A stretch of 64,000 nucleotides of DNA from Candidatus Latescibacterota bacterium (GTDB taxonomy: Bacteria > Latescibacterota > UBA2968 > UBA8231). The DNA is taken from the NCBI GenBank assembly GCA_965221775.1, contig CBDCSU010000004.1, positions 608,001 through 672,000 of the forward strand, read 5' to 3'. Position numbers and translations under genes: made by a program. The notes below the pieces were generated by a model. The model made no database searches. It saw only the letters and a list, made by a program, of their open reading frames with translations, and had not been told where the DNA came from. Positions 26,737 to 63,833 of this stretch are shown piece by piece; position 1 is the first letter of the stretch; each line of letters starts with the position of its first letter.

Positions 26737-27710
26737 TGGGAGGGCGCTTGCGCAACCTCTTCCTGCTGTCTTCGGCGGCCGCCCTCGTTTTCTCGTCAAC
26801 GGTTCTCGTGGCTCCCCTCGCCGCCTCGGAGACGGCGGAGACGGTGCTCATCCGCCAGATCCTGGAGAAGGACCGCTTCGGACGCCGCCGGGGAGACGCG
26901 GAGGTCGTCACCTACGGGTACGACAAGGACCGCTTCGTCGTCTACGACGGCGCCGGATCGATCGATGTCCGCGCCTGGACCGTCCGCCACTCCTCCCTGG
27001 AGGAGTACCAGGCCTCCCTCGAAGCCGACCTGGCGGCGAACCGGTACGACATCTCCCGCGCCGTCCTGTTCCTCACTGTCTGGAAGAACCGGGCTTTCGC
27101 CGCCACCCTCGACTCCGGCGTGGTCATCGACCGCGCCGGCGACAGCCGCCGCGGCTTCGTGCAACGCGCCATGTGGTCCTTCCTCAAGGAGGACGAGGAG
27201 TGGAAGGCCACCAGCCTCGTCATCGCCGTCGGAGACACGGCCGACGGAGGCGCCGCCGGCCGCGTGGAGGACCAGGAGGTCGCCGCCGCCCTGCAGGAGG
27301 ACGCCCGCAACTGGTCCGAGGGGAGCAAGGGCGACATTCTGAGCGGGGTGCAGGAGGACTTCGTCGGCAACGACTGCTACTACAGCTCGAATCCGGCCTC
27401 CTGGCTGACCGTCTTCGCCGGCCGCGAGGAGTTCGGCAAATGGCTGGAGCAGCGCCTCGAGCACGTCGACTACGACATCGAGCGCACCCTGCTCCACGCC
27501 GTCAGCCGGGGGGACGAAGCCGTGGCCGTCACCCGAGACCGGATCACGGTGACCTACACGGCCGGGGACGCACGCCTGGAGCAGGACCGCACCTCGGCCT
27601 GGCTGCTGACGCGGCGCGGCGGACGCTGGCGGGTCACCTGCGCGTGGTGGAAAGCCAAGTCCTTCGATCCGCCCGGAGCCCCGGAGGGCGCCCCCACCGC
27701 CCAGCGCTGA
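26736..27710 (+). CDS. Secreted protein with two tandem NTF2/SnoaL-like domains
   Basis: ATG overlaps the upstream TGA; signal peptide; internal repeat YDISRAVL/YDIERTLL and W..L....W strands. Confidence 0.65.
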   Translation: MGGRLRNLFLLSSAAALVFSSTVLVAPLAASETAETVLIRQILEKDRFGRRRGDAEVVTYGYDKDRFVVYDGAGSIDVRAWTVRHSSLEEYQASLEADLAANRYDISRAVLFLTVWKNRAFAATLDSGVVIDRAGDSRRGFVQRAMWSFLKEDEEWKATSLVIAVGDTADGGAAGRVEDQEVAAALQEDARNWSEGSKGDILSGVQEDFVGNDCYYSSNPASWLTVFAGREEFGKWLEQRLEHVDYDIERTLLHAVSRGDEAVAVTRDRITVTYTAGDARLEQDRTSAWLLTRRGGRWRVTCAWWKAKSFDPPGAPEGAPTAQR

Positions 27711-37797: not shown

Positions 37798-38801
37798 CCC
37801 TCGACGAGAAGTCCCTGGCGGGCTACCTCAAGCGAAAGAAGCTGACCGGCGAGGGCGAGGGCGTACTCGATGTGCGCCAGGTCGGCGACGGACTGAAGAA
37901 CCTGGTCTACGTCGTGGTCACCACCGAGCAGCGGCTGGTGGTCAAGCAGGCCCACTGGCGGGTGCAGGTGAAGCAGCGCTGGTGGACGGACCGCAAGCGG
38001 CTCTTTGCCGAGAAGTGCTGCATCGAGACCCTGGCCAACATCCTGCCCCCCCAGGTGCTCCCCGAGGTTCGGCTGGAGGACCGGACCAACTTCGTTCTGG
38101 TGACCACCGCTCCGCCCCGCGACGCCACGGCCTGGGCCGACGAGCTGGACATGGGCCGCATCGATCTGCAGGTCGCCTCCCAGGTCGGGGAGCTGCTGGC
38201 GGCGGTGCACAACCAGACCTCCGAGATGGGCGATCTGGAGACGCTCTTCAAGGAGACCAAGCCCTTCGAGCAGCTGCGGGTGGAACCCCTCTATGGGCGT
38301 GTGGCCGCCGCCTTCCCCGAGATCCGGACGGCGGTCACGGCGCAGGCCCGGGCCCTGATGGAGAGCGGCCGCTGTCTGGTTCTCGGAGACCTGCGGCCGC
38401 GCAACATCCTCATCGACAACGGCGAGCTGTACCTGGTCGACTTTGCCACCGCCCACTTCGGGCAGCCATCCTTCGACCTCGGCTTCTACGCCGGCGACAT
38501 GTGTCTGAAGGCGATGCTCAACCACCCGCAGAAAGCCGCCTACCTCGAGGCGATCAACGTGTTCTGGGGAGCCTACACCCGCACCGCCGAGTACGAGGGA
38601 GCGGCGGAGGTGGGCAAGTCCGCGGTGCGGGACTTCGGCTGCCTGCTCCTGGCCCTGGTCTGCGGCCGGATGCCCGTGTACGAGGGCGACGAAGCCTTCC
38701 GCGACCTCACCTTCCGCATCTCGCAGAACCTCCTGTCCACCGAGGCGGAGAAGATCGAGGACATCACCGAGTCCATCAATCGAACTCTGATCGATGGATG
38801 A
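37794..38801 (+). CDS. Aminoglycoside-phosphotransferase/methylthioribose-kinase-like protein
   Basis: ATGA overlap with lipA; GDGLKNLVY, VKQA, GDLRPRNI, VDF, FDLG. Confidence 0.7.
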   Translation: MTLDEKSLAGYLKRKKLTGEGEGVLDVRQVGDGLKNLVYVVVTTEQRLVVKQAHWRVQVKQRWWTDRKRLFAEKCCIETLANILPPQVLPEVRLEDRTNFVLVTTAPPRDATAWADELDMGRIDLQVASQVGELLAAVHNQTSEMGDLETLFKETKPFEQLRVEPLYGRVAAAFPEIRTAVTAQARALMESGRCLVLGDLRPRNILIDNGELYLVDFATAHFGQPSFDLGFYAGDMCLKAMLNHPQKAAYLEAINVFWGAYTRTAEYEGAAEVGKSAVRDFGCLLLALVCGRMPVYEGDEAFRDLTFRISQNLLSTEAEKIEDITESINRTLIDG

Positions 38802-40339
38802 GGCGCGCCCCCGCCGCCATCCTGCTCGCCCTCTCGGCGTGCGCCCCCGGCCCCGCCTCCGACCCCGGTGACCCGCGGGCCGGTGTGCCGCCGCCGGCGC
38901 GCGAGTTCCGCGCCGTCTGGGTGGCCACGGTCGACAACATCGACTGGCCCTCGCGGCCCGGGCTCACGTCCGGACGCCAACGGCTCGAGGCGCGGGAGAT
39001 CCTGGACCGGAGCCGCGACCTCGGGCTCAACGCCGTCGTCCTCCAGATCCGCCCTCACTGCGACGCCCTCTACGCCTCTCCCCTGGAGCCTTGGTCCTAC
39101 TACCTGAGCGGCCGTCCGGGAGAGCCGCCGGAGCCGCCGTACGACCCCCTGGAGTTCTGGGTGGAAGAGGCCCACGCCCGCGGCCTCGAGCTGCACGCCT
39201 GGCTCAACCCCTACCGCGCCGACCATCCCGCCAACCGGGAAGGCCTGGCGCCGGAGTCGATCGCCAGCCGCCGCCCCGACCTCGTGCGCACCCTCGGCGA
39301 CAGCGGCTACCTGTGGCTCGACCCCGGCTCCGAGGAGGTGCGGGAAGCGACCCTGTCCGTGTTCCTCGACGTGGCCGGACGCTACGACGTGGACGGCGTG
39401 CACCTGGACGACTACTTCTACCCCTACCCTTCTTACAGCGGCGGCGCCGACTTCCCCGACGAGCCCACCTGGCAGGCCTACCTCGAGGATGGCGGCGACC
39501 TCGAGAGGGCGGACTGGCGGCGGCAGAACGTCGACCGCTTCGTCGAGAGCCTCTACACCCGCCTGCGGGACCTGCCGCGGCCGGTGAAGCTCGGCATCAG
39601 CCCCTTCGGGGTCTGGCGCCCGGGGCACCCGCCCTCGATCCGGGCCGGGATCGACCAGTACGGCACGCTGTTCGCCGACCCCCGGCGGTGGCTGCACGAG
39701 GGCTGGCTCGACTACTGCGCCCCCCAGCTCTACTGGCCGATCTCCAAGGTGCCCCAGAGCTTCCCGGTCCTGCTCGCCTGGTGGACCCGAAACAACCCTC
39801 ACGGACGGCACGTGTGGCCGGGGCTGTTCACCTCCTCCGTGGCCGCCCGGGGGTGGGCGTCCCGGGAGATCGTCGACCAGATCATGGTGACCCGCGGCCT
39901 GCTGGACCCCCGCCCGGGGCACATCCACTTCAGCGCCCGCGCCGTTCTCGACTCCGGCCGCGTCGGCGCCCGGGGGGACCGGCTCAACGCGGCCCTGGCC
40001 AAGGGGCCGTACCGCGGACCGGCGCTGGCCCCGGCCACCCCCTGGCTGGACGACGAGCCTCCCGAGGCTCCGGCCGTGAAGGCCCGCCTCGGCGACGGCG
40101 AGTTGCTGCTGGACTGGTCCCGGCCGGAGGGCGAGGCTCCTTTCCTCTACGTGGTCTACACCAGGGCTTGGGAGACCGGATGGCGCCACCGCATCGTTCC
40201 CGCGGCGCGGACGGAGCTGCTGCTGCCCCACGGAGAAGCCGGGGAGAGAGGCGCGGTGGAGTCGGTGGCGGTCACCTCCGTGGACCGCATGGGCAACGAG
40301 AGCGAGGTGCGCGTCCATACCCTCGAGAGCCTGCTCTGA
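38798..40339 (+). CDS. Glycoside hydrolase-like 10 (YddW/DigH-like) lipoprotein
   Basis: Lipobox LSAC; EFRAVWVATVDNIDWP, HAWLNPYR, HLDDYFYPY, PQLYW. Confidence 0.88.
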   Translation: MRRAPAAILLALSACAPGPASDPGDPRAGVPPPAREFRAVWVATVDNIDWPSRPGLTSGRQRLEAREILDRSRDLGLNAVVLQIRPHCDALYASPLEPWSYYLSGRPGEPPEPPYDPLEFWVEEAHARGLELHAWLNPYRADHPANREGLAPESIASRRPDLVRTLGDSGYLWLDPGSEEVREATLSVFLDVAGRYDVDGVHLDDYFYPYPSYSGGADFPDEPTWQAYLEDGGDLERADWRRQNVDRFVESLYTRLRDLPRPVKLGISPFGVWRPGHPPSIRAGIDQYGTLFADPRRWLHEGWLDYCAPQLYWPISKVPQSFPVLLAWWTRNNPHGRHVWPGLFTSSVAARGWASREIVDQIMVTRGLLDPRPGHIHFSARAVLDSGRVGARGDRLNAALAKGPYRGPALAPATPWLDDEPPEAPAVKARLGDGELLLDWSRPEGEAPFLYVVYTRAWETGWRHRIVPAARTELLLPHGEAGERGAVESVAVTSVDRMGNESEVRVHTLESLL

Positions 40340-40389
40340 GACCGCCGCCGTTGCCCCCGTCCGAGGCATCGGGCATATTTGCTGGATTC

Positions 40390-41046
40390 ATGCCAGTCAT
40401 CGCCGACATCGGAACGCGGATCGAGCTGGTGCCCATGGACGGGCACTTCCACGACATCACGGTGGCCCTGTACCGCCAGTCCACGGCGGCGGGCCCCGCC
40501 TTTCTGGTGCACAGCTACAGCGCTCTCGACGGAGCCGAGGAGCGCCTCGAGGAGATCGGCTCCCTCATGACGATCCTGGGCGGCCTGCAGCCGTCGTTGG
40601 AGGCTCCCGGCCTGCTGGCCTTTCCCTGCGGAGAGGAGCACGGCCTGGCCGTGCGCCGTCTCTTCCTCGAGGCGTGCAAGATCGGCTCCCTCGACGATGC
40701 GGCCCCTCTTCCCCTGTCCACGGTGGACCGCAAGTCGGGCCTGACCATCGTCGTCGAGCCCCTGGGAGAGGGCCAGTACCGGGTGGAGGCGTTGGGAGAG
40801 GCCGACGAGTCCGACCGCTCCCGCCGCGTCCGGGTGATCGTCAACGGCCTCATGAAGCTGGGTGAGATGCGGCCCGTGGAAGGCGCCGGCGACTGCGTCG
40901 GCTTCGACTGCCGCCACTCCCACGACGAGCTCGTGGGGCTGCTCCTGGTGCGCGCGCCGAACGTGCGCGCCATCGTCCGCGAACAGCAGGCTCTGGCCGC
41001 CCGCGGCGTGCTGGCGGCGCCGAGCCAGCAGGGGAACGAGTCATGA
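40390..41046 (+). CDS. Uncharacterised protein with two FxCxxxH repeats; first gene of the corrinoid operon
   Basis: ATG 40390, stop overlaps the next ATG (ATGA); FPCGEEH and FDCRHSH. Confidence 0.75.
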   Translation: MPVIADIGTRIELVPMDGHFHDITVALYRQSTAAGPAFLVHSYSALDGAEERLEEIGSLMTILGGLQPSLEAPGLLAFPCGEEHGLAVRRLFLEACKIGSLDDAAPLPLSTVDRKSGLTIVVEPLGEGQYRVEALGEADESDRSRRVRVIVNGLMKLGEMRPVEGAGDCVGFDCRHSHDELVGLLLVRAPNVRAIVREQQALAARGVLAAPSQQGNES

Positions 41047-42068
41047 TCTCCATGAACGGCAGGCAACGGGTCCTCGCCGCCCTGCAGCGGCAGCCGGTGG
41101 ACCGTACGCCGGTCTGCAATCCCACCTCGGTGGCCACGGTGGAGCTGATGGACCTGGTGGACGCCCCCTTCCCCGCCGCCAACCGCGAGCCCGAGCTGAT
41201 GGCCCGGCTGGCGGCCACGGGGTACACCGAGCTCGGCTTCGACAGCATCATGCCCGTGTTCTCCATCATCCAGGAGTCCTCCGCCCTGGGCTGCAAGATC
41301 CAGTGGGAGCAGAAGGACAACTGGCCCACGGTGAAGATGCGCGAGCCGATCTGGACCTCCGTCGACGACATCGAGATCACTCCCGGCCTGCTCACCCACC
41401 CGGACACGAAGTGCGTCCTCGACGCCCTCACCATCCTCTGCCGGGAGTACGGCGACGAGGCCGCCATCATCGGCAAGACCATGGGGCCCTGGTCCCTCGC
41501 CTACCACTGCCTCGGCGTCGAGCCCTTCCTGCTCATGTCCCTCGACGACCCTGACGAGACGAAGAAGATCCTCGACATCCTCAAGGAGGTCACCGTCGAT
41601 TTCGGCATCGCCCAGGTCGAGGCCGGCGCCGACGCCCTGACCCTCCCCGACCACGCCACCGGCGACCTGGTGAGCGGCTCCTACTACGAGCGCTACCTGC
41701 GCGACCTGCACATCGAGTTCGCCGAGCGCATCCCCTGCCCCATCATCCTGCACATCTGCGGCCGCACCGTGGACCGCATGGAGTTCATCGCCCAGACCGG
41801 CATGGCCGCCTTCCACTACGACTCCAAGAACAAGCCCGGGGAGTCGAGGGAGATCGTCGGCGAGCGCATCAGCCTCGTGGGCAACATCAACAACCCCGAG
41901 ACGCTGTTCTCCAAGGAGCCGGAGGATGTGGCCGCCGAGGTGGTGAAGAACCTGGAGGCGGGCGTGCAACTCGTCGGACCGGAGTGCGCCATCCCTCTGC
42001 AGACCTCCATCGAGAACCTGCGCGCCATCCCGTCAGCGGTGCAGGAATGGCATGCGCTGAACAACTGA
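41043..42068 (+). CDS. MtaA/CmuA-family methylcobamide methyltransferase (URO-D fold)
   Basis: VDRTPV, GPWSLA, AGAD, Zn ligands ILHICG and GPECAIP, GNIN. Confidence 0.87.
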   Translation: MISMNGRQRVLAALQRQPVDRTPVCNPTSVATVELMDLVDAPFPAANREPELMARLAATGYTELGFDSIMPVFSIIQESSALGCKIQWEQKDNWPTVKMREPIWTSVDDIEITPGLLTHPDTKCVLDALTILCREYGDEAAIIGKTMGPWSLAYHCLGVEPFLLMSLDDPDETKKILDILKEVTVDFGIAQVEAGADALTLPDHATGDLVSGSYYERYLRDLHIEFAERIPCPIILHICGRTVDRMEFIAQTGMAAFHYDSKNKPGESREIVGERISLVGNINNPETLFSKEPEDVAAEVVKNLEAGVQLVGPECAIPLQTSIENLRAIPSAVQEWHALNN

Positions 42069-42192
42069 CGATGCCTGGATCCCGCGACAGCCAACAGTGC
42101 AGATGGCGCGCCATCCCCGAGGCCGTGCGCCAGTGGCACGGGCAGGCGAACTGAGTGCCCGAGCTCTCGGACATCCACAACGAGACCCTCCG
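42021..42192 (+). repeat. Diverged tandem duplication (period 86 bp) of the methyltransferase/corrinoid gene junction, containing mini-ORF 42071-42154
   Basis: RAIPSAVQEWHALNN* + MPGSRD versus RAIPEAVRQWHGQAN* + MPELSD. Confidence 0.8.
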
Positions 42193-42904
42193 CTTCGAGA
42201 TCGAGGAGTACCTCGAGAGGCCGGAGGAGATCGAGCGCTTCGTGGGGATCTTCTCCGCGGCGCGGCCGATCAACCAGGACATGGCGGCGGCCCTGATCGA
42301 GGGCGACCATCACACCGTCGACGCCCTCGCCGCCCAGGCCCTGGAGGAGGGCCTCGAGGCGCTGGAGGTGATGGACGACGGACTGATCGCCGGCATGGGC
42401 ATCGTGGGGGTCAAGTTCCGGGAGAACTTCATCTTCGTGCCCGAGGTCCTCGCCTGCGCGCGCGCCATGAAAGCGGGCATGGCCCACATCGAGCCGATCC
42501 TGTCGGCCTCGGGCGCCGAGAAGGCGGGCACGGTGGTGATGGGGACGGTGAAGGGCGACCTCCACGACATCGGCAAGAACCTGTGCATCATGATGCTCAA
42601 CGGCGCCGGCTTCGACGTCATCGACCTCGGCGTCGACACCTCGGAGGACGAGTTCATCGACGCGGTGGAGGAGTCGGGGGCGCGGGTCATGGGGATGTCG
42701 GCCCTGCTGACGACGACCATGCCCAACATGGGCAAGACGATCGAGGCCTTCATCGACGCCGACCTGCGCGACGACGTGCAGATCATGGTGGGCGGGGCGC
42801 CCGTGACCCAGGAGTTCGCCGAGGACATGGGCGCCGACGGCTACGGCAAGGACGCCCTGGCCTGCGTGGAGCTGGCCAAGCAGCTGGCTCGGAACGGAAG
42901 CTGA
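42155..42904 (+). CDS. Stand-alone corrinoid (B12-binding) methyltransferase protein, cap + Rossmann domains
   Basis: GMGIVG..F...IFVPEVL, GTVKGDLHDIGKNL, MSALLTTT, MVGGAP. Confidence 0.93.
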   Translation: MPELSDIHNETLRFEIEEYLERPEEIERFVGIFSAARPINQDMAAALIEGDHHTVDALAAQALEEGLEALEVMDDGLIAGMGIVGVKFRENFIFVPEVLACARAMKAGMAHIEPILSASGAEKAGTVVMGTVKGDLHDIGKNLCIMMLNGAGFDVIDLGVDTSEDEFIDAVEESGARVMGMSALLTTTMPNMGKTIEAFIDADLRDDVQIMVGGAPVTQEFAEDMGADGYGKDALACVELAKQLARNGS

Positions 42905-43239
42905 TGGCGGGGATCCGGCCCGAAGAGGTGAAGAAGCGCTTCGACCGCCTCACCGAGATCTTCGGCGGCATCGTCGAGCACGCCGACCTCCAGGCTTCGC
43001 TGCGGTGCCCGTACCGCGACCGGCACGACCTGTGCACGGCCAAGTTCCACTGCAAGAACCAGACCCCCGCCGGGGACGCCGCCGACGGCGACCTGTCGTG
43101 CTCCCACGACGGCCGCTTCGACTACCGCAGCGCCTGGGAATCCGACCCGCGCACCGGCGAGCGCGCCCGCCGCCGCATCGAGACCATCCGCGAGCGCGCC
43201 GCCGAAGACCGCCAGGGGCGCCGCGGCCCCCGGCGCTGA
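42904..43239 (+). CDS. Small 4-Cys hypothetical protein (111 aa)
   Basis: ATG overlaps the upstream TGA; RCPY..C.....C...C pattern; codon usage typical of the window. Confidence 0.72.
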   Translation: MAGIRPEEVKKRFDRLTEIFGGIVEHADLQASLRCPYRDRHDLCTAKFHCKNQTPAGDAADGDLSCSHDGRFDYRSAWESDPRTGERARRRIETIRERAAEDRQGRRGPRR

Positions 43240-43256
43240 CGGCCGGCCCCCCGGCC

Positions 43257-44915
43257 ATGGCCGTCGTCCGCGCCCCCGGCCTCGAGCCTCGGAGGCTGAC
43301 CCCGGGGCGCACCCTCTTCGACTACGCCGACGACCTGCGGCTGCGGGTCCCCACCTCGTGCCTGCGCAACGGCTACTGCCACGAGTGCGTGGTCGAGGTC
43401 CACTCGGGCATGGAGGCCCTGCGCCCCCGCTCGGAGGCGGAACGGTTCCTGCGCGACCCCTACCGCCTCGCCTGTCAGGCCCTCGTCGTCGAGGATCTCG
43501 ACGTCGACTTCGAGCCCCTCCGGCGGTCGCCGCAGATCCTCTCCGGCACCCGCCCCCGCCGCATCGAGCTTGACCCCGTGGTCGGCCGCCGCGGCGACGA
43601 GGTCCTCTACGACGGCGAGCCCGTCGACCGCTACCGGGGGCACCTCTACGGCCTGGCCATCGATCTCGGGACGACGACGGTCGCCATGGACCTCGTCGAC
43701 CTGGAGACGGGCGACTCGGTCTGCGTCACCTCCTTCGAGAACCCCCAGCGCTTCGGCGGCTCCGACGTGATGCACCGCATCACCTACGACGGCGGCCCCC
43801 ACCACGGCGAGCTGCAGAAGGCGGTGGCCACCGCCCTCAACCACCACATCGCCGGCATGTGCGACCGCCTCGGCTTCGTCCGCCAGGAGATCTACGAGAT
43901 CACCCTCGCCGGCAACCCGACCATGCGCGACCTGCTCTTCCGGCTGGACGTGCAGCCCATCGGCACCCGCCCCTACAAGTCGACGGTGGAGCGCGCCTTC
44001 CTCGACGGCGAACGGTCGACCACCGCCTGGGTGGAGAAGTCGCGGCGCCTGGGCATCCGCGCCAACATCCACACCCGCGTCTACGGCCTGCCGCTGATCG
44101 CCAGCCACGTGGGCGCCGACACCGCCGCCGCTCTCGTAGCCTGCGACCTGCTGAGCGCCGAGGGCGACGGGGTGAGCCTCCTCGTCGACGTGGGCACCAA
44201 CACCGAGGTGGTCATCGCCGGACGGGGGCGGATGGTGGCCGCCTCCTCGCCGGCGGGGCCGGCCTTCGAAGGCGGCCTCGTGGGCTGCGGCATGCCCGGC
44301 TACGAGGGCGCCATCGAGTCGGTGCGCATCGACGACCACGGGGCCTTCGTCTGCTCCACCATCGGCGGCGCCGAGCCCCTGGGCCTCTGCGGCTCCGGCC
44401 TGGTGGACCTGCTCGCCGAGCTGCGGCGCACCAACCGCATGTCGGAGAAGGGCGTCCTCGGAGACGGCCGGCAGCGCAACCCGCGGGTGATGGTGGCGCC
44501 GGAGCAGGGCCTCGCCTTCTCCGCCGAGGACGCCAGCCACCTGGCCCAGGCGAAAGCGGCCAACTACTGCGGCCAGTATCTTCTGCTGCGCGAGTTCGGC
44601 ATCGATCCGGCCGACGTGTCGCGGCTCTACCTGGCCGGGGGCTTCGCCAACTACGTCGACGCCGCCAATGCGGTGGCCATCGGCTTCCTGGCGCCGGTGC
44701 CGGCGGAGCGCGTCGTCAAGGTCGGCAACGCCGCCCTCCAGGGCGCCCGCGAGGTGCTGCTCAGCCGCGGCCGGCGCCAGCGGCTGGAGGCGGCGGTGGC
44801 CGGCATCGAGCATGTGGAGCTGGAGACGGTGCCCGAGTTCTTCGACGCCTTCGTCGACGGCTGCATGTTCCGGCCCATGCCCTCCCGCGTCCTCAACCGA
44901 CAGGATCCCCGTTGA
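43257..44915 (+). CDS. ATP-dependent reductive activator of corrinoid proteins (RACo/RamA-like; [2Fe-2S] + ASKHA ATPase)
   Basis: Cx5Cx2C...RLACQ, IDLGTTT, NPQRFGGSDV, DVGTNTE, AGPAFEG, GLCGSG, LAGGF. Confidence 0.9.
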   Translation: MAVVRAPGLEPRRLTPGRTLFDYADDLRLRVPTSCLRNGYCHECVVEVHSGMEALRPRSEAERFLRDPYRLACQALVVEDLDVDFEPLRRSPQILSGTRPRRIELDPVVGRRGDEVLYDGEPVDRYRGHLYGLAIDLGTTTVAMDLVDLETGDSVCVTSFENPQRFGGSDVMHRITYDGGPHHGELQKAVATALNHHIAGMCDRLGFVRQEIYEITLAGNPTMRDLLFRLDVQPIGTRPYKSTVERAFLDGERSTTAWVEKSRRLGIRANIHTRVYGLPLIASHVGADTAAALVACDLLSAEGDGVSLLVDVGTNTEVVIAGRGRMVAASSPAGPAFEGGLVGCGMPGYEGAIESVRIDDHGAFVCSTIGGAEPLGLCGSGLVDLLAELRRTNRMSEKGVLGDGRQRNPRVMVAPEQGLAFSAEDASHLAQAKAANYCGQYLLLREFGIDPADVSRLYLAGGFANYVDAANAVAIGFLAPVPAERVVKVGNAALQGAREVLLSRGRRQRLEAAVAGIEHVELETVPEFFDAFVDGCMFRPMPSRVLNRQDPR

Positions 44916-45922
44916 AGAGCTTCCGCCAACGACTGGACGACCCGGAGCCCGTCCTCTTCGACGGCGGCTTCGGCACCCAGCTCTTCGCCCGCGGGGTGGA
45001 GCTGCCCAACAGCGCCCTGGCCAACGCCCACCACCCCGAGGCCGTCGTCGACGTCCACCGGGCCTACATCGCCGCCGGCTCGGAGATGATCGAGACGAAC
45101 ACCTTCGTCGCCTCAGCCCTGCACCTGGAGATGGCCGATGCCGGCGACCTCACCGCCGGCGAGCTGGCCAGGCTCGCAGCCGCCCACGCCCGGCGGGCGG
45201 TGGAGGAGAGCGGAGACCCGGTCTACGTGGCCGGCTGCCTGGGGCCCTCTCCCGGGGCGATCGAGGCCGACGCCGGAGACACCGACTTCGGCATCGCCGA
45301 CGACAAGGTCCGCGCCGCCCACCAGGAGGTGGCCGAGGGCCTGGCTTCCGCCGGCGTCGACCTGTTCCTGGTGGAGACCATGTTCTCGGCCCGCGAGGCG
45401 GCCATCGCCGTCGACGTGGCCCGGGGCTTCGGTCTGCCCTTGGCCGTCTGTCTGACCTACAAGTACACCCGGGACCGGCGGACGAAGCAGGTCGTCTACC
45501 GCACCGACTGGGGCCATTCCCCCGCCGACGCCGTCGAGATCCTCGGCTCCGGGGAGCACTCCGGCGGTGACGACCTGCTGCCCTCGATCGACCTCTTCGG
45601 CCTCAACTGCGGCGCCGAGTCCCGGCGCGAGGAGCACTCCGGCATGGCCTACGCCATCGAGGGCACGAGACAGACCGCCGCGGCCCTCGCCGCGCGCGGC
45701 CTGAACGGCCTCCGCCTGGCCGCCTACCCGAACGCGGGTCTGCCGAAGCTGGACCGCGAGACCCGCCAGACCTACTACCTGCAGGGTCCGGATGTGATGA
45801 TCGCGAGCCTCGACGCGCTGCAACAGGCGGGCGCCTGGCTCATCGGCGGCTGCTGCGGCACCACCCCCGACCACATCCGCGCCTTCCGCGACGGCCTCGA
45901 CGCCGGCGCCGACGATGGCTGA
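44912..45922 (+). CDS. Stand-alone homocysteine S-methyltransferase domain protein
   Basis: TTG start overlapping TGA; DGGFGT, ETNTF, VETM, GLNCG, YPNAGLP, GGCCGTTP. Confidence 0.9.
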   Translation: MKSFRQRLDDPEPVLFDGGFGTQLFARGVELPNSALANAHHPEAVVDVHRAYIAAGSEMIETNTFVASALHLEMADAGDLTAGELARLAAAHARRAVEESGDPVYVAGCLGPSPGAIEADAGDTDFGIADDKVRAAHQEVAEGLASAGVDLFLVETMFSAREAAIAVDVARGFGLPLAVCLTYKYTRDRRTKQVVYRTDWGHSPADAVEILGSGEHSGGDDLLPSIDLFGLNCGAESRREEHSGMAYAIEGTRQTAAALAARGLNGLRLAAYPNAGLPKLDRETRQTYYLQGPDVMIASLDALQQAGAWLIGGCCGTTPDHIRAFRDGLDAGADDG

Positions 45923-46184
45923 GTACCAGGTCCTCTACTGGCGGGACATCCCCGCCCAGGTCCGCGTCTTCGGCGGCCGGCGGCCCCTCTCCCGGCCCCT
46001 GCCCGACCGCTTCCAGCAGGCGATCGACCGCGTCGCCATGCGCGACGGTCTCGCCGGCACCGACGACTACCTGGCCCAGTGGCAGTGGACCGAGAAGCGC
46101 ACCGGCGACGGCGAGCCGGAGGAGTTGCTCGGCCGCCTCATCGAGGAGCTGGCAGCCGAGTACGACGCCGCCAACCCCGGCTGA
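45915..46184 (+). CDS. 'Virulence factor' family small protein (YWRDIP motif)
   Basis: YWRDIPAQV...RFQQAIDRVAM...YLAQW. Confidence 0.8.
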   Translation: MAEYQVLYWRDIPAQVRVFGGRRPLSRPLPDRFQQAIDRVAMRDGLAGTDDYLAQWQWTEKRTGDGEPEELLGRLIEELAAEYDAANPG

Positions 46185-46187
46185 GCC

Positions 46188-48134
46188 GTGGCCTCCACCT
46201 ACCCCAAGAGCTACGAGACGATCGTCGTCGGCGGCGGCCACGCCGGCACCGAGGCGGCCCTGGCGGCGGCGCGCATGGGCGCCGAGACGCTGCTGGTGAC
46301 GATGAACCTCGACACCATCGGCCAGATGTCGTGCAACCCCGCCATCGGCGGCATCGGCAAGGGCCACATGGTCAAGGAGATCGACGCCCTCGGCGGCCAG
46401 ATGGGCGTCAACACCGACCTCGCCGGCATCCAGTTCCGGCGCCTCAACACGCGCCGGGGCCCGGCGGTGCGCGCCACCCGCGCCCAGTGCGACAAGAAGG
46501 CCTACCAGCTCGAGCTGAAATACGCCTGCGAGGCCCAGCCCCGCCTCGACGTACGCCAGGGCATGATGGAGAGCCTGCGGGTGGAGGACGGCGCCATGCG
46601 CGGCATCGGCGTCAAGGGGGGGATCGTCTACTCCGGGCGCACCGTCATCCTGACGACGGGGACCTTCCTGCGCGGCAAGATCCACGTGGGCGACTTCCGG
46701 TACGCCGCCGGCCGCGCCGGCGAGGGCTCGGCCGACCGCGCCGCCGAGGGGCTCGCGGGTCTGGGGTTCCGGATCGGCCGCCTGAAGACGGGCACGCCGC
46801 CGCGCGTCAACGGCAGGACCATCGACTTCTCCGCCCTGGAGCCGCAGCCGGGGGACGAGCCGCCGCCCACCTTCTCCTGCCGCACCGAGGGCCCCGTCCT
46901 GCGCCAGATCCCCTGCTGGATCACGTACACCCACGCCGGGACCCACCAGCTGATCCGCGACAATCTCGAGCGCTCGGCGATGTACTCGGGCCGCATCGAG
47001 GGGGTCGGTCCGCGTTACTGCCCTTCCATCGAGGACAAGGTGGTGCGCTTCGCCGACCGCGACCGGCACCAGATCTTCGTCGAGCCCGAGGGCCTGCGCA
47101 CTCACGAGCACTACATCAACGGCCTCTCCATGAGCCTGCCCGAGGAGGTGCAGCTGCCCGTCCTGCGCTCCCTGCCCGGCCTCGAGCGGGCCGAGATGAT
47201 GCGCCCCGCCTACGCCGTCGAGTACGACTACGCGGAGCCCACCCAGCTCTACCCCACCCTGGAGACCAAGCGGGTGCGGGGGCTGTTCTTCGCCGGGCAG
47301 ATCAACGGCACCACCGGCTACGAGGAGGCCGGCGCCCAGGGGCTGATGGCGGGGATCAACGCCGTCCTCAAGTCCCGCGGCGAGGACGGCTTCGTCCTCG
47401 ACCGTTCCCAGGCGTACATCGGCGTGCTCATCGACGACCTGGTGACCAAGGGGACGACGGAGCCCTACCGCATCTTCACGTCGCGGGCGGAGTACCGCCT
47501 GCTGCTGCGCGAGGACAACGCCGACGAACGCCTCACGGAGCACGGCCGCCGCTTCGGCATCGTCGACGACGAGAGCTGGCGGAAGTACGAGATCAAGCGC
47601 GACAGCATCGCCGCCGAGATGGAGCGCCTGGAGTCGCAGCGCCTGCCCCTGGGGGAGGGCCTCGACGAGCTGCTGCGGCAGCGGCAGACGGCGCCGGTGC
47701 GCCAGCCTCCCCTGCTGCGCGACCTGCTGCGGCGGCCGGAGCTGCGCTATGCCGACATCGCCGCCCTGGCGCCCCCCCGGCGGCCGCTGACGCCGGAGGC
47801 GGGGGAGTGCGTGGAGGCGCGGGTCAAGTACGCGGGCTACGTCGACCGTCAGGCCGAGGAGGTGGAGCGGCTGCGGCGCATGGAGACGCTGCGCATCCCG
47901 GAGGACTTCGACTACGACGAGGAGGCGCGCCAGCTCTCCTCGGAGGCGCGCCAGAAGCTCGGGCGCGTGCGGCCCCGCTCCCTGGGGCAGGCGTCGCGCA
48001 TCTCGGGCGTCTCCCCCGCCGACGTGTCGTCGCTGATGGTGCTCCTCAAGGCGCGGCGGGGGCGGCGGGCGGCGGCGGCTCCGGCCTCTTCACCTTCCGA
48101 ACCCGCGAGTCCTCGGTCAGCAGCCAGCGGTTGA
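46188..48134 (+). CDS. mnmG: tRNA uridine-5-carboxymethylaminomethyl modification enzyme MnmG (GidA)
   Basis: [51 protein letters not shown]. Confidence 0.97.
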
Positions 48135-49200
48135 TGGCGCCGTCGCCGTGCAGGTCGGCGGCCTCCTCGACCCAGGCCTCGTACCCGTGCTCCGCCGCCG
48201 CGATCCCCGGCGGCCAGTGGAAGCCGTCCATCGTCCGGGGCGCGAGTCCGAGGCTCTCGGGCACGGCGGCATAGGCCAGCCCCTTGCGGGCGCGGACCCG
48301 CTGCCGCCAGTAGATCTCCCGCAGCAGGCGGATCGCCGCGTCCTCGGGCGGCAGCTCGAAGTCGCCGCCGGCGGCCCCGGGGCCGACCACCTCGTGGGCG
48401 AAACGCACGTAGCCCCACTGCTCCGGGAAGTGCATGTTGATCAGGCCCTGGGGCGACCACACCCAGTTGTCCTCGCGCTCGCCGGGGACCTTCACGTAGC
48501 CCTGCCCGTCCTCGGCGGCCACGACCCGCCACTGCACGCGGGAGAAGTTGATCCGCCAGATGTGGCCGTCCTCGGGGGGCACGGCGGTGCGGCTGGGACG
48601 GCGCAGCCCCTCCCAGGGGAAGGCGATCTCCACCGACCAGCCCTCGTCCTCGTCGCCGGGGTCGTTGATCGTGCCGTAGACCCGGACCCCCGTGCGCAGG
48701 CCGGGAATGTCCCAGGCGTGGACCGGGGGCCCGCCGTCGCGGTAGGGCCGCACCAGCAGCAGGTCCCACTCGGTGCCGAAGGCGTTGACCTCGTACTCGT
48801 AGTAGTTGTGGGTGTCCCAGTCGGGGTCGACGAAGACCTCGAAGTCGTTGTCGTGGAAGATGACGGCGTCGCGCTGGGTGAGGGTGGCCCAGACATGGGG
48901 CTCCTCGAGGAAGGCGGCGACGTAGAAGTGCTCGTCGTCCCACAGCATCCTGGCCCGGGTCTGCAGCCGCGGCGCCGCCTTGAGGTCGCCCTCGATGTCG
49001 ACGAAGAGCTGCGTCCAGGGGGCGTGCTGCCAGGAGGGCTCGTCGAGGGAGCCGTCGACGACGACCGCCCCGGAGGCGCGGAAGGCGGTATAGCGCCGCG
49101 GCTCGATACCCGCCAGGTGCTCCGGGTCCCACGGCGCCCCGAGGGCCGCCGCAGCCACGGCCGGAGCGATCAGCAGAGCGCGAAAACCACCGATGGCCAC
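48046..49200 (-). CDS. Carbohydrate-binding family 9-like secreted protein
   Basis: [49 protein letters not shown]. Confidence 0.8.
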
Positions 49201-52432: not shown

Positions 52433-53518
52433 CTACCGGCGGCGCTCGCGAGCCGGCCGTCTTCGCCGCGGAGGGCCGCCGTCTCCCAGCTCTCCCCGGC
52501 GCCAGGCGGCGATGTAGGCGGCGCAGTGCTCGTCCCGGCCCATCAGTACGTCATCGGCCAGCCGGTAGGGGCGCGAGCCGCGGTCGAGGGCGAAGACCTT
52601 GTCGGGGCGGCTGGTCACCGGATCGATGATGCCGCTGTCGGCGCCGGCCTCGACTGCCAGGACCATGAAGACGTCGTTGATCCACTTGCGGCTCGGGATG
52701 CCGAAGGAGACGTTGCTCATCCCCCCGGTGATGTGAATCTCGGGGCCGTACTTGTGGCGCAGAGCGGCGATCGCCTCGAAGCTGTGCCGTCCGAAGCGGC
52801 CGTCCACCGAGATCGGGAAGATCAGCGGGTCGATGTAGATGTCGCCGGCGGCGATCCCCTTCTCGAAGGCGGCGTCGACCATGCGGGAGGCATTGGCGAT
52901 GCGCTCTTCGGCGCTCTCGGGCATCCCGGACTCGCCGGCGGCGGTGACGATGACGTGGGCGTCGTGCTCGACGGCCAGATCGAGGGCATCGAGGCGTTCG
53001 AGTGAGGCCGAGTTGAGCATCGGCCGCCCCTTCGACCCGTCCCACGCCCGCAGGCCGACGGAGATCGTCTCCGCATTGGAGGAATCGACGGAGACCGGGA
53101 TGTCGGTCAGGCCCTGCACCGTCGTCACGAGCCAGGCCATGGCCTGCTTCTGCTCCTCGAGCTTCAGCGAGATCTCATCGACGTTGAGATCGAGGAAGTC
53201 GGCGCCCGCCTGTTCCTGGCGCTGAACCATCCGTCTCAGGTAATGCATGCCCTCGGCGGCGGACTCCCGGTCGCCGCCCATCGCCGCCTGCACGGCGATC
53301 TTGACGTGCTTGACGCGGCCTTCCTCGAAGTCCTGGGTGCCCTCCACCGCTTCCGGAATGACCAGCTGGCGCCCCTCGCCGTCGACCGAGCGGTAGCGCA
53401 CCGCCTGGCGGCCGTCGGCGGTGGTCGTGACGAGCTTGCCGCGGCGCATCACCACCCGCGTGGTGTGGATGTTCTCGCCGATGATGACGAAATCGAGATC
53501 GGGGTTCTTCAGCTTCAT
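52433..53518 (-). CDS. Pterin-binding methyltetrahydrofolate:corrinoid methyltransferase (AcsE / MetH folate domain-like)
   Basis: IIGENI, DFLDLN, SVDSS, LNS, YIDPL, GGMSNVSFG; ATG 53518. Confidence 0.85.
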   Translation of the reverse strand: MKLKNPDLDFVIIGENIHTTRVVMRRGKLVTTTADGRQAVRYRSVDGEGRQLVIPEAVEGTQDFEEGRVKHVKIAVQAAMGGDRESAAEGMHYLRRMVQRQEQAGADFLDLNVDEISLKLEEQKQAMAWLVTTVQGLTDIPVSVDSSNAETISVGLRAWDGSKGRPMLNSASLERLDALDLAVEHDAHVIVTAAGESGMPESAEERIANASRMVDAAFEKGIAAGDIYIDPLIFPISVDGRFGRHSFEAIAALRHKYGPEIHITGGMSNVSFGIPSRKWINDVFMVLAVEAGADSGIIDPVTSRPDKVFALDRGSRPYRLADDVLMGRDEHCAAYIAAWRRGELGDGGPPRRRRPARERRR

Positions 53519-62828: not shown

Positions 62829-63085
62829 CCCCTGCCCGACCCGTCCCGCGCCTCGAGGCCGCGCCCGACCTGGCCAGCGGCCGGGCTGCGACCTCGGCCG
62901 AAGGGTGGTCCGTGCACGGCGCCGGCCCGGCCCGCCGATGACCGCCGCCCGCCACGCTCCGGGCCTGGAGGCCGCTCCCGGCATGGCCGGCCGCCAGCCC
63001 ACGGTCCCGGGGCCGTCCAGCCCATGACGGCTGCCCGCCCCGCCCTGCGCCTAAAGGCCGCCGCCGACCTGGCCGGCCGCGAGCG
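62790..63085 (+). repeat. Three diverged copies of the pyrD/phyH junction forming ATGA-coupled mini-ORFs 62825-62941 and 62938-63027
   Basis: MTPARPVPRLEAAPDLASGR / MTAARHAPGLEAAPGMAGRQ / MTAARPALRLKAAADLAGRE. Confidence 0.85.
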
Positions 63086-63833
63086 CGCCGTGCGCGAGCA
63101 GGGGTTCGCCTACCTGCCGGCGCTGCTCGACGCCGGCCGGATCGCCGCCCTGCGCGAGGCCATGGACCGCGCCGAGCCGCTGGCCGAGAGCTTCGACCGG
63201 GTGGAGGAACCGCCCGGGCATCCCTTCTACCACAAGATCATCAACAACGCCTTCAACCGGGACCTCCTCTTCCTCTCCTGCCTGGACTTCCCGGGGGTGA
63301 TCGAGCTGGCCGAGGCCCTCCACGGGGAGGACTGCCACGTCATCGGCATGACCGCCTGGCTCACCGGTCCCGGCCGCCCGGACCAGGGCCTGCACGCCGA
63401 CTGGCAGCCCCTGACCCTGCCCGAGGACGTCATGGACGATCCCCGCGTGCAGATCCCCGTCTTCATCACCACCGCCCACTTCTACCTCGACGACGTGACC
63501 GAGGAGCTGGGGCCGACGGTCTTCGTGCCGGGCAGCCACCGCGCCGGCCGGCCGCCCGATGGCGACCATGGCTGGCGCGGGACGGGCGAGCACAGCCTGC
63601 TGTGCGGCGCCGGCGACGTGGTCGTCTTCCGCTCCGAGGTCTGGCACCGGGGCACGGCCAACCGCGGCGACCGCGTCCGCTACCTGCTGCAGGTGCACTA
63701 CGCCCAGCGCATGATCACCCAGAAATACCCTCCCTACCTCAACCGCTTCCGCTTCGACCCCGCCATTCTCGAGCAGGCCACCCCCCGCCAGCGCCGGCTG
63801 ATGGGCGACCACCGCCCGAGCAACTACGACTGA
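63024..63833 (+). CDS. Phytanoyl-CoA dioxygenase (PhyH) family Fe(II)/2-oxoglutarate enzyme
   Basis: GF, HAD (HxD), YLDD, GPT..VPGSH, GDV, WHRG..N..R. Confidence 0.88.
   Translation: MTAARPALRLKAAADLAGRERAVREQGFAYLPALLDAGRIAALREAMDRAEPLAESFDRVEEPPGHPFYHKIINNAFNRDLLFLSCLDFPGVIELAEALHGEDCHVIGMTAWLTGPGRPDQGLHADWQPLTLPEDVMDDPRVQIPVFITTAHFYLDDVTEELGPTVFVPGSHRAGRPPDGDHGWRGTGEHSLLCGAGDVVVFRSEVWHRGTANRGDRVRYLLQVHYAQRMITQKYPPYLNRFRFDPAILEQATPRQRRLMGDHRPSNYD

Follow-up and report, generated by a model that had tools for sequence, protein, structure and literature searches.

A conserved operon of Candidatus Latescibacterota with a predicted split methionine synthase and an MtaA-family enzyme that probably takes methyl groups from a sulfur compound

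Corrinoid-dependent methyltransferase systems beyond MetH have long been ascribed to anaerobes. In Methanosarcina, the MtaA-like zinc protein MtsA transfers the methyl group of dimethylsulfide-type thioethers to a corrinoid protein, and CmuA is a fusion protein with its own corrinoid domain. In 2025, work on MtgBCDE described aerobic marine bacteria in which glycine betaine demethylation and methionine synthesis run on one B12 carrier, and a corrinoid protein common to methionine synthesis and a demethylase was shown genetically in Ruegeria pomeroyi (PMC12478193). MtpA, an MtaA homologue, is a donor-side enzyme for methylmercaptopropionate, and thermodynamics disfavours the transfer of a methyl group from a thioether to Co(I) (10.1101/548461). 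A role in methyl-sulfur or methyl-selenium metabolism has been proposed for the type 1 mlp clusters, and a His-Cys-Cys site is the mark of the S/Se methyltransferases of the URO-D superfamily, the cysteines being replaced by carboxylates in the O-demethylases (PMC10418091). The halide enzyme CdmB of this superfamily is zinc-free (PMC13222342).

The window, i.e. the whole stretch of 64,000 nucleotides that was analysed, encodes seven co-oriented genes on the + strand (40390-46184), designated A to G. A GC3 frame plot, start-codon inspection and a motif check confirmed all the genes and motifs that had been named in a preliminary description of this DNA. Four junctions overlap (A/B by 4 nt, C/D by 1 nt, E/F by 4 nt and F/G by 8 nt), and gaps of 86 nt and 17 nt separate B from C and D from E, respectively. 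A GHL10 glycosyl-hydrolase-like gene precedes A and MnmG is the next gene after G. The matching pterin-binding gene (P), placed about 6 kb away in the preliminary description, does lie on the opposite strand, 6.2 kb from the end of G. An oxygen-dependent PhyH gene said to sit beside the cluster is indeed encoded in the window (63024-63833), but at 16.8 kb from G it is not adjacent; the genome itself fits an aerobe, since a COX1 gene is present. The bacterium that carries the cluster is sponge-associated.

Gene C (42155..42904, +) encodes a free corrinoid carrier protein, composed of B12-binding_2 (PF02607) and B12-binding (PF02310), i.e. a cap and a Rossmann B12-binding domain, with the DxHxxG motif (DLHDIG at residue 135) and an N-terminal extension that is kept in relatives from residue 1. 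Its closest solved chain is 1y80 (1.4e-58), MetH domains matching at about 1e-27. Gene E (43257..44915, +) codes for a RACo/RamA-type activase with the three domains of the RACo/RACE proteins, namely an N-terminal [2Fe-2S] ferredoxin, a middle domain and an ASKHA ATPase (Fer2, RACo_middle and RACo_C_ter). Its Fer2 part carries Cys 35, 41, 44 and 73 of the [2Fe-2S] type, and the protein does not reach the cut-offs of the NCBIfam models of AcsV and RamA; it is predicted to be the ATP-dependent reductive activator of C. The 111-aa protein D (42904..43239, +) matched no family model in Pfam or NCBIfam and was modelled by AF2 with a pLDDT of only 68.8; its cysteines 35, 44, 50 and 66 are invariant in 28 sequences. 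Because D reads through into E in 17 of the 33 loci that cover both genes (among the best 80 of 249 metagenome loci), D is a split-off N-terminal domain of the activase. It is probably a metal or Fe-S module, and would carry a metal centre. Of the two proteins earlier designated as unknown metal-ligand proteins, A and D, only A therefore keeps the label 'unknown'.

On the methionine and folate side, gene F (44912..45922, +) encodes a free homocysteine S-methyltransferase domain (PF02574, S-methyl_trans, 5.4e-53) with GLNC at residue 230 and GGCC at residue 312, which matches PRK08645, PRK07534 and metH below their cut-offs. Among the fetched phylum genomes, F is the gene found most constantly beside E, and it is predicted to be the methionine-forming output. 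The product of P (52433..53518, -) matches PF00809 (2.9e-24), its closest solved chains being 4o0q (7.7e-33), MeTr/AcsE (1.9e-27) and MetH domains (about 1e-18), and is predicted to be a free methyl-tetrahydrofolate:corrinoid methyltransferase. P and a FolP-like gene (255 bits) are the only two Pterin_bind genes of the genome; P adjoins the cluster in 12 of the 18 fetched phylum genomes and is detached in the window's genome. The 89-aa protein G (45915..46184, +), with YWRDIP at residue 8, belongs to PF13769 (7.6e-22; 77.9 bits for a gathering cut-off of 25). No paper mentioning this accession and no solved relative were found, and nothing found here supports the Pfam name 'Virulence factor'. 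Just two homologues longer than G were found, one fused to Pterin_bind (P0151) and one to DUF1638 (P0152), and G adjoins F or P in other loci; it is proposed to assist either the folate side or the reactivation side.

In the window's genome, which is 96.8% complete, tblastn searches with C, E, A, D, G and P each returned a single copy, C being the sole corrinoid protein detected with itself as query, and the only further match of B is a 30%-identity fragment (E 0.001). The single copies of C, E, B and P support the earlier view of one corrinoid carrier used by several methyltransferases. The MetH reactivation domain (PF02965), already reported as absent from the window, had no match even genome-wide, and neither PF06253 (MTTB) nor DUF1638 (PF07796) was found in the genome. 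The cluster has no MTHFR of its own, the only one of the genome being fused in a YitJ-like gene. Three short MetE-like genes are also encoded, so that the cluster need not be the sole methionine route here.

Gene B (41043..42068, +) encodes an MtaA/CmuA-family zinc methyltransferase of the URO-D superfamily (PF01208, 1.4e-63). It scores above the cut-offs of TIGR01463 (MtaA/CmuA; 250.4 bits for 235.4) and NF004889 (262.5 for 244) but below those of the MtaA equivalog NF040654 (235.1 for 400) and of MtbA NF041608 (196 for 600), and is therefore filed as neither MtaA nor MtbA. Its top-scoring models are CoM-methyltransferase models and its best solved relative is MtaA 4ay7 (6.3e-52), with whose LHICG and GC its ligands His237-x-Cys239...Cys315 align. 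The ligands are invariant in 28 orthologues, for a mean column identity of 86%; among the best 80 of 249 metagenome loci, the median identity is 80% for B, versus 52% for A. The invariant His-Cys-Cys zinc site points to a methyl-sulfur or methyl-selenium compound as the putative substrate, and methylmercaptopropionate, methanethiol and dimethylsulfide are candidates with precedent, by analogy with described enzymes. The preliminary description had listed several possible donors. Methyl compounds of the sulfide type fit the zinc site, while methyl halides and methoxy-aromatics are disfavoured by it, CdmB being zinc-free, and betaine is disfavoured as the genome is without an MttB enzyme.

Gene A (40390..41046, +) encodes a protein of 218 aa with no described family, as no Pfam or NCBIfam model matched it in a profile search. 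It consists of an alpha/beta domain duplicated in tandem and a C-terminal tail, which is conserved. Its AF2 model (mean pLDDT 93.3) had no match at E<=1e-3 in a Foldseek search against the PDB, and the best VIA match (Z 6.9, rmsd 3.4 over 94 residues) is at background level. Homologues at E<=1e-3 amount to 219 cluster representatives among 1.84 billion. The motif FxCxxxH occurs twice (FPCGEEH at residue 78 and FDCRHSH at residue 172), and Cys80, His84, Cys174 and His178 are each at least 90% conserved in 33 sequences; as the homologues P0033, P0131 and P0134 of the same alignment are without this set, it may be structural.

The operon is real and strongly conserved. The order A-B-C-D-E is kept in each of the 18 phylum genomes retrieved around a close A and, as far as contigs reach, in five of five close genome records, and B follows A in 60 of the 62 metagenome loci whose sequence runs on for at least 700 nt beyond A (best 80 of 249). 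Flanking synteny (LipA, APH, S41 peptidase, MnmG) is common among these best 80 of 249 loci, and many of them are therefore kin of the window's genome and not independent. The gene set does co-occur in other genomes, as these neighbourhood counts bear out; a failure to do so had been named beforehand as grounds for abandoning the proposal. A is present in 125 of 168 phylum genomes and a B orthologue with 67% identity or more in 124 of 168, all of them A-positive; nearly every genome of the window's class has both, each in a single copy. A is a near-constant partner of B and presumably binds it. Their adjacency is not obligatory, since in one genome (G010) unrelated genes surround a B of 68% identity and the A-like gene is about 700 kb off, and A lies 12 kb from B in another (G037). 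A divergent GntR+FCD regulator precedes A in 28 of 56 metagenome loci and in 13 of 18 phylum genomes, and PurU is encoded near the cluster in 9 of 44 metagenome loci (both metagenome counts from the best 80 of 249).

Strong MetH matches were found in 63 of the 168 phylum genomes, and cross-tabulation of the lists showed that 54 of these also have A. As 54 of the 125 A genomes thus carry full-length MetH, the module is not a mere MetH substitute. The folate branch, for its part, tracks MetH loss: MTHFR(+DUF5981) and P lie inside the cluster in nine of nine fetched genomes that lack MetH, while among the nine fetched genomes that bear it three have both and five have only A-F (with or without G); F directly follows E in five of these nine. 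The five genomes with a minimal cluster are single-contig, 95-100% complete and carry A-F. In these five, no stand-alone P was found, the only match being inside a frame of MetH length (968-1247 aa), nor any MTTB (PF06253) or MtrH. B and F are therefore the only methyltransferases recognisable for C in these genomes, and B, possibly with A, is probably on the methyl-donor side, which indirectly supports the methyl-input role first suggested for the MtaA-like enzyme.

The model that we favour, with moderate confidence, is the following. C would be one corrinoid carrier common to the three methyltransferases B, F and P, and D and E would form a two-piece ATP-dependent reductive activase that keeps C active. 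F would transfer the methyl group of methyl-Co(III)-C to homocysteine, yielding methionine, and P would exchange methyl groups between C and tetrahydrofolate, so that C, D/E, F and P, perhaps with G, would constitute a methionine synthase of separate proteins without an AdoMet reactivation domain. B and its partner A would link a methylated sulfur (or selenium) compound to C, B acting most likely on the donor side (CH3-S-R + Co(I)-C -> CH3-Co(III)-C + HS-R), and the net reaction would be CH3-S-R + homocysteine -> methionine, or would lead to methyl-THF where P is present. The cluster thus probably takes methyl groups from a sulfur compound; we infer the common use of C by these proteins, the direction of B and the S/Se nature of its substrate.

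The high conservation of B and the near-universal, single-copy occurrence of A and B in the class count against the donor role, since they suggest a housekeeping enzyme rather than a catabolic one that is specific for an input substrate. Such conservation would fit one fixed cellular acceptor, as it would if B were on the acceptor side, with methyl groups passing from methyl-THF through P, C and B to a thiol, sulfide, selenide or metalloid, and with the cluster making or detoxifying an S/Se compound beside methionine. The best-known members of the family, MtaA and MtbA, are methyl-corrinoid:thiol methyltransferases (NCBIfam names; 4ay7), the related Mlp2 used methylcobalamin to methylate selenide in vitro (PMC10418091) and this direction is thermodynamically easy (10.1101/548461). 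However, the five complete A-F genomes offer no free pterin-binding, MTTB or MtrH protein to load C, and methionine, via reverse F, would be the sole methyl source remaining to them; PurU and MTHFR neighbours also suit methyl oxidation more than methyl export. An acceptor role is therefore considered unlikely. Less likely still is a split methionine synthase only, in which A and B would be auxiliaries, for example in the trapping of reduced Co(I) by methylation, in zinc handling or in assembly. The absence of PF02965 from the genome, the single-copy components, the near-universal A and B in the class, the high conservation of B and the constancy of F beside E would agree with it, but RACo-type activases do without a methyl donor, and 54 of the 125 A genomes keep A-F even though they have full-length MetH, reactivation domain included. 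In addition, Phaeobacter and Ruegeria have a working split MetH that involves no MtaA-like protein (PMC5764234, PMC12478193). Finally, it is highly improbable that B (with or without A) works like the Cmu, Cdm, O-demethylase and Mtg systems as the input for a non-sulfur donor, whether methanol, a methyl halide, a quaternary amine or a methoxylated sugar or aromatic: the URO-D superfamily does hold O-demethylases, CmuA and CdmB (PMC10418091, PMC13222342), and MTHFR and PurU neighbours resemble the cmu gene set, but the invariant His-Cys-Cys site is typical of S/Se enzymes and has carboxylates in place of Cys in O-demethylases (PMC10418091), CdmB is zinc-free (PMC13222342), B scores highest against CoM-methyltransferase models, and quaternary amines need MttB-family enzymes, none of which was found in the genome.

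Under the donor-side model, A and B may further form an undescribed two-subunit methylthioether (or methylselenide):corrinoid methyltransferase, which would supply methionine, and methyl-THF for energy, in several aerobic, uncultured bacterial lineages, A being a new metalloprotein fold and a specificity or gating subunit. This extension is put forward tentatively and we regard it as rather doubtful; if true, it would represent a B12-dependent, folate-independent methyl-salvage route in which methionine is made straight from a methylated sulfur compound. The module would account for methionine synthesis in genomes annotated without MetH. If its input is a methylated sulfur compound, it could be an unrecognised sink for such compounds, and it would place a new need for B12 on sponge, soil and deep-sea communities. 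The proteins A, D and G, which are small and have conserved metal-ligand or tail motifs, are clean targets for biochemistry.

Among the described systems, the locus resembles MtgBCDE and the split MetH of Ruegeria pomeroyi and Phaeobacter inhibens (PMC12478193, PMC5764234) in its separate corrinoid, pterin-binding and homocysteine proteins, a likeness at the level of components. It also shares with MtgBCDE a Fer2 and RACo/DUF4445-type activase in place of an AdoMet reactivation domain, one corrinoid protein (here predicted) for both methionine synthesis and a methyl-donor enzyme, a nearby MTHFR paralogue, aerobic hosts and the frequent absence of canonical MetH. Indeed, the split methionine synthase core of MtgCDE is found here as free C, F and P domains and a RACo-type activase that replaces PF02965. 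The input differs, being MtgB (MttB superfamily, glycine betaine) there and an MtaA-family zinc protein with A here, PF06253 having no match in this genome or in five related complete genomes. Unlike in Phaeobacter, where DUF1638 is needed, this domain was not found in the present genome, and D and G are present instead. With MtpA of Methanosarcina (10.1101/548461), the likeness is at the level of the family: B belongs to the same family of MtaA-like zinc proteins, and the transfer of a methyl group from a thioether to a corrinoid protein is the role proposed for it. MtsA and MtpA are archaeal, work under strictly anaerobic conditions and supply coenzyme M and methanogenesis; no A-like partner is described for them, and they are not known to have a homocysteine or folate output.

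The type 1 mlp clusters (Kountz and Balskus, PMC10418091) likewise combine His-Cys-Cys MtaA-like proteins, a corrinoid protein and a RACE/RACo activase in non-methanogens. They encode two or three different Mlps (at least two MtaA-like proteins, Mlp2 and Mlp3), lack any methyltransferase for folate or homocysteine and are confined to obligate anaerobes, whereas the present cluster has a single URO-D-type, MtaA-like gene together with A, F and P, and its genome encodes COX1. CmuABC and CdmBCA (PMC13222342) are similar in their URO-D-superfamily input, corrinoid carrier, pterin-type methyltransferase and nearby folate C1 oxidation genes, but CdmB has a hydrophobic halide channel and is zinc-free (PMC13222342), in contrast to the invariant thiolate-type zinc site of B and the homocysteine output of its cluster. 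The initial statement that this gene combination is not a characterised system thus holds in part: a literature search found no paper on the A-B pair, while the principle of a shared carrier has already been published for MtgBCDE with an MttB-type input (PMC12478193). What is new here is D as a detached activase domain and the fusions of G. The locus would represent a second input branch on the same type of hub, in which a methanogen-type thiol/selenol enzyme is joined by the uncharacterised partner A. Nearly all genomes of one bacterial class have this branch, which is kept even beside canonical MetH.

Seven co-oriented genes, here called A to G, are encoded on the + strand at positions 40390-46184 of the window. 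The span claimed in the preliminary description was matched exactly by gene finding from third-position G+C and start-codon context, the former being used because the G+C content of the window is about 70%. The cluster encodes (i) a protein without family, A (40390-41046), (ii) an MtaA/CmuA family protein, B (41043-42068), matching URO-D (1.4e-63, Pfam) and TIGR01463 MtaA/CmuA (250.4 bits for a cut-off of 235.4, NCBIfam), (iii) a corrinoid protein, C (42155-42904), with B12-binding_2 and B12-binding domains, (iv) a second protein without family, D (42904-43239), (v) a RACo-type activase, E (43257-44915), with Fer2, RACo_middle and RACo_C_ter domains, (vi) a homocysteine S-methyltransferase, F (44912-45922; S-methyl_trans, 5.4e-53), and (vii) a PF13769 protein, G (45915-46184; 7.6e-22). 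These families come from Pfam and NCBIfam, in neither of which A or D has a match. Neighbouring genes overlap by 1-8 nt at four junctions and are separated by 86 and 17 nt at the other two. All the sequence motifs named earlier are present in the cluster genes, and the pterin-binding gene said to be detached from them, P, lies at 52433-53518 on the - strand. The PhyH-family dioxygenase (63024-63833, + strand; 2.9e-18), previously placed beside the cluster, is in the window but 16.8 kb off. The flanks, a GHL10-like gene 5' of A and MnmG 3' of G, are unrelated. Between the GHL10-like gene and A, which are 50 nt apart, a small hairpin with a T-rich tail (40359-40374, + strand) might terminate the upstream transcript, although the region is not enriched in terminator-like sites beyond chance (scan of 38500-48500: 4 such sites for 1.7 +/- 1.5 expected, and 0 promoter-like sites). 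Elsewhere in the window, two coding frames well supported by third-position G+C, at 10082-11158 (- strand, 358 aa) and 26748-27710 (+ strand, 320 aa), have no Pfam family at E<=1e-4.

The window (G000:C4:608001-672000) belongs to an assembly of 5.36 Mb in 6 contigs, 96.8% complete and 7.75% contaminated, in which a COX1 gene is present. Its nearest public records are MAGs labelled Candidatus Latescibacterota or Gemmatimonadaceae, and at least half of the sampled words of the stretch are present in fifteen DNA runs, most of which carry the label sponge metagenome. The lack of a SAM-dependent MetH reactivation domain, first noticed in the window, extends to the whole of this 96.8% complete genome, in which MttB, DUF1638 and the precorrin-8X methylmutase CbiC also had no match. 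Judged by the single marker CbiC, this B12-dependent hub may have to be run on corrinoids supplied by the environment. A, C, D, E, G and P are single-copy by tblastn, and the sole further match of B is a fragment of 30% identity (E 0.001). Only two pterin-binding genes are encoded, a FolP-like one and P, together with four homocysteine-methyltransferase domains. The sole MTHFR domain of the genome is located outside the window, in a 652-aa YitJ-like fusion with one of these homocysteine S-methyltransferase domains (G000:C4:788967-790787); the cluster-type MTHFR+DUF5981 gene common among relatives is absent. From this content, the cluster is the only MetH-like B12 machinery of the genome. It need not be its only predicted methionine route, since three MetE-like genes, all short, are also encoded. 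One of them, in the window (16895-17896, - strand), codes for a 333-aa protein consisting of the MetE catalytic domain alone (PF01717, 1.4e-25), a possible 'core-MetE'; enzymes of that type may use methyl-corrinoids and not methyl-folate, according to papers cited in PMC12478193.

The gene set co-occurs in other genomes, as expected of the operon proposed in the preliminary description: the seven-gene order is kept, as far as contigs reach, in 5/5 close genome records (B identity 84-96%), and the set recurs in metagenome and phylum loci. A profile scan of metagenome contigs with a 9-row alignment confirmed 249 relatives of A, of which the best 80 were kept. Among these best 80 of 249, 62 loci extend 700 nt or more beyond the 3' end of A; B is the next gene in 60 of these (exceptions: L033 and L087), and C, D and E come after it wherever the contig permits. 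Many of these loci continue with an MTHFR of about 530 aa fused to DUF5981, then P, F and G; others carry F-G immediately upstream of A. Median identities to the proteins of the window, again for the best 80 of 249, are 52% (A), 80% (B), 77% (C), 46% (D), 63% (E), 60% (P), 59% (F) and 62% (G). Flanking LipA, APH-kinase, S41-peptidase and MnmG genes are common to many of the 80 loci, which are also the closest of the 249; they are largely kin of the genome under study and not independent lineages.

Across 168 genomes of the phylum, in which A, the B orthologue and MetH were cross-tabulated, A is present in 125 and a B orthologue (at least 67% identity) in 124, all of them A-positive; in the sole genome with A only, A sits at a contig end. 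In the class of the window, A is near-universal and single-copy (families f1, 67/75; f2, 3/3; f3, 22/22; f4, 30/31). Fifteen genomes, all without A, carry only a paralogue of B (43-47% identity), which represents another MtaA-like clade (L129-L131); at L131, the gene adjoins those of a xylose-isomerase-like TIM barrel and a DUF6786 protein, and a corrinoid protein is missing from the vicinity. At L125 and L126, in genomes G010 and G037, distant relatives of A (30-35% identity to it) are encoded away from B, among unrelated neighbours (e.g. gluconolactonase, glyoxalase, gamma-glutamyltranspeptidase, FNR-like reductase) that give no functional clue; G010 also encodes an isolated B of 68% identity, C, D and E being absent from the 20 kb examined. 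Strong MetH matches were found in 63/168 genomes, with frames mostly of 1030-1350 aa where the gene is whole on its contig. MetH is present in 54 and absent in 71 of the 125 A-bearing genomes, and present in 9 and absent in 34 of the 43 others. Many genomes therefore keep the module beside a canonical MetH, and it is thus more than a MetH substitute.

Loci around a close A gene were compared in 18 genomes of the phylum, 9 MetH-less and 9 MetH-bearing. All nine MetH-less genomes have the order A-B-C-D-E-MTHFR-P, mostly followed by F and G. Among the MetH-bearing ones, the folate branch (MTHFR and P) is found in 3/9, one genome, congeneric with that of the window, has a detached P on the opposite strand, as seen here, and 5/9 have only A-B-C-D-E-F, with or without G. 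These five genomes are single-contig and 95-100% complete, and encode neither MttB nor MtrH; their sole P-like sequence is the pterin domain in a MetH-length frame (968-1247 aa), so that B and F are the only recognisable methyltransferases for the corrinoid protein. Since the reaction of F makes methionine and only B and F are available, B (with A) would most simply be the methyl-loading enzyme, as judged from the gene content of five related, non-independent genomes.

The best solved relative of B is the methylcobalamin:CoM methyltransferase MtaA (4ay7, 6.3e-52). The zinc ligands His-x-Cys and Cys of B (H237, C239, C315) align with those of 4ay7 and are invariant in 28 orthologues, whose mean column identity is 86%. 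B falls below the NCBIfam equivalog cut-offs of MtaA and MtbA and was therefore not filed as a CoM methyltransferase. According to Kountz and Balskus (PMC10418091), His-Cys-Cys marks the S- or Se-methyltransferases of the superfamily, and carboxylates take the place of Cys in O-demethylases; the chloromethane enzyme CdmB is described as zinc-free in PMC13222342. Moreover, the MtaA homologue MtpA is reported to be a donor-side enzyme specific for methylmercaptopropionate and mercaptopropionate, and Co(I) methylation of this type to be thermodynamically uphill (10.1101/548461). Together, the zinc-site rule, the zinc-free CdmB and the MtpA precedent favour a methylated sulfur or selenium compound as the best-supported predicted substrate class of B, and disfavour halides, methoxy compounds and betaines. 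Complex prediction for B with A (scores 0.01, 0.89 and 0.03) speaks neither for nor against binding.

Concerning the two proteins described earlier as unknown metal-ligand proteins, A still has no family, whereas D is now assigned to the activase, because it forms an in-frame N-terminal extension of E in 17/33 loci. With four invariant Cys, D is probably a further metal or Fe-S module of this enzyme. Its AF2 model (pLDDT 68.8, about 50-67 in the Cys region) is too poor for a fold search, and its ESM Atlas matches are unnamed clusters only, commonest in Pseudomonadota, Latescibacterota and Chloroflexota. The A family numbers 219 cluster representatives out of 1.84 billion (E<=1e-3); its members conserve C80, H84, C174, H178 and an RGVLxAPSxQ tail at the C-terminus, although the Cys/His set is missing from a few homologues. 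The AlphaFold model of A (pLDDT 93.3) has two similar alpha/beta halves with one CxxxH each; Foldseek gave no PDB match at E<=1e-3 and the ESM Atlas no usable one. With VIA-align, the best of 48,161 chains reached a Z of 6.9, no higher than the stated background, the top candidates being urea carboxylase/KipI-like, HIT-like and ACT-like half-domains. In three fragmentary metagenome proteins, each found singly, part of an A sequence is joined to the beginning of a URO-D domain (P0054), to a recombinase piece (P0085) or to a glutamine synthetase piece (P0149); all three were taken as artefacts of gene calling or assembly. Only two longer homologues of G were found, one carrying a fused pterin-binding domain and the other DUF1638, which places G on the folate or reactivation side; for the split MetH of Phaeobacter, Price et al. 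(PMC5764234) connected DUF1638 with the reactivation of B12. No paper naming PF13769 and no solved structure of relatives were found, nor any basis for its Pfam name, 'Virulence factor'.

Among solved chains, C matches 1y80 at 1.4e-58 and MetH domains at about 1e-27, and P matches 4o0q at 7.7e-33, MeTr at 1.9e-27 and MetH domains at about 1e-18. By similarity, C is thus nearer to free corrinoid proteins, and P to free methyl-THF:corrinoid methyltransferases, than either is to MetH domains, in agreement with the conclusion of Mausz et al. for MtgC. A divergent GntR+FCD regulator is encoded upstream of A in 28/56 metagenome loci and 13/18 phylum genomes and is missing in the window and in 5/5 loci of its own genus; PurU is nearby in 9/44 metagenome loci. 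Regulator and PurU would fit a metabolite-controlled methyl harvesting with an outlet for folate oxidation. Near-identical contigs (0-6 differences) of two RNA libraries from one study (X16 and X17) cover pieces of A, B, the B-C junction, C, the D-E junction and E. Since such contigs neither show strand nor exclude DNA carry-over, they are no more than consistent with expression, and stretches lacking cover carry no weight.

In summary, the cluster is a real, conserved system. Its predicted core is a methionine synthase in separate parts, reactivated by a RACo-type enzyme and centred on a free corrinoid protein. What is new is the near-constant pairing of the MtaA-like protein with A, which probably forms an input branch for methyl groups from sulfur or selenium compounds. 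The whole reading, direction included, of a split methionine synthase fed with methyl-S/Se groups by B (with A) is one towards which we lean, though modestly. No paper was found on the A-B pair or the whole gene set; the supplementary tables of PMC12478193 and PMC10418091 may list such clusters. A core of MtaA-like protein, corrinoid protein and activase is also found in type 1 mlp clusters (PMC10418091), which differ in that they have several Mlps, lack folate and homocysteine enzymes and are confined to obligately anaerobic hosts. Of the described systems, the nearest is the MtgBCDE hub, also presented as a MetH in three parts with a RamA-like activase (PMC12478193 and PMC5764234), whose architecture and shared-carrier logic are the same; its input enzyme is of the MttB type, whereas here it would be of the MtaA type together with A, and in place of DUF1638, which is absent here, the present cluster has D and G.
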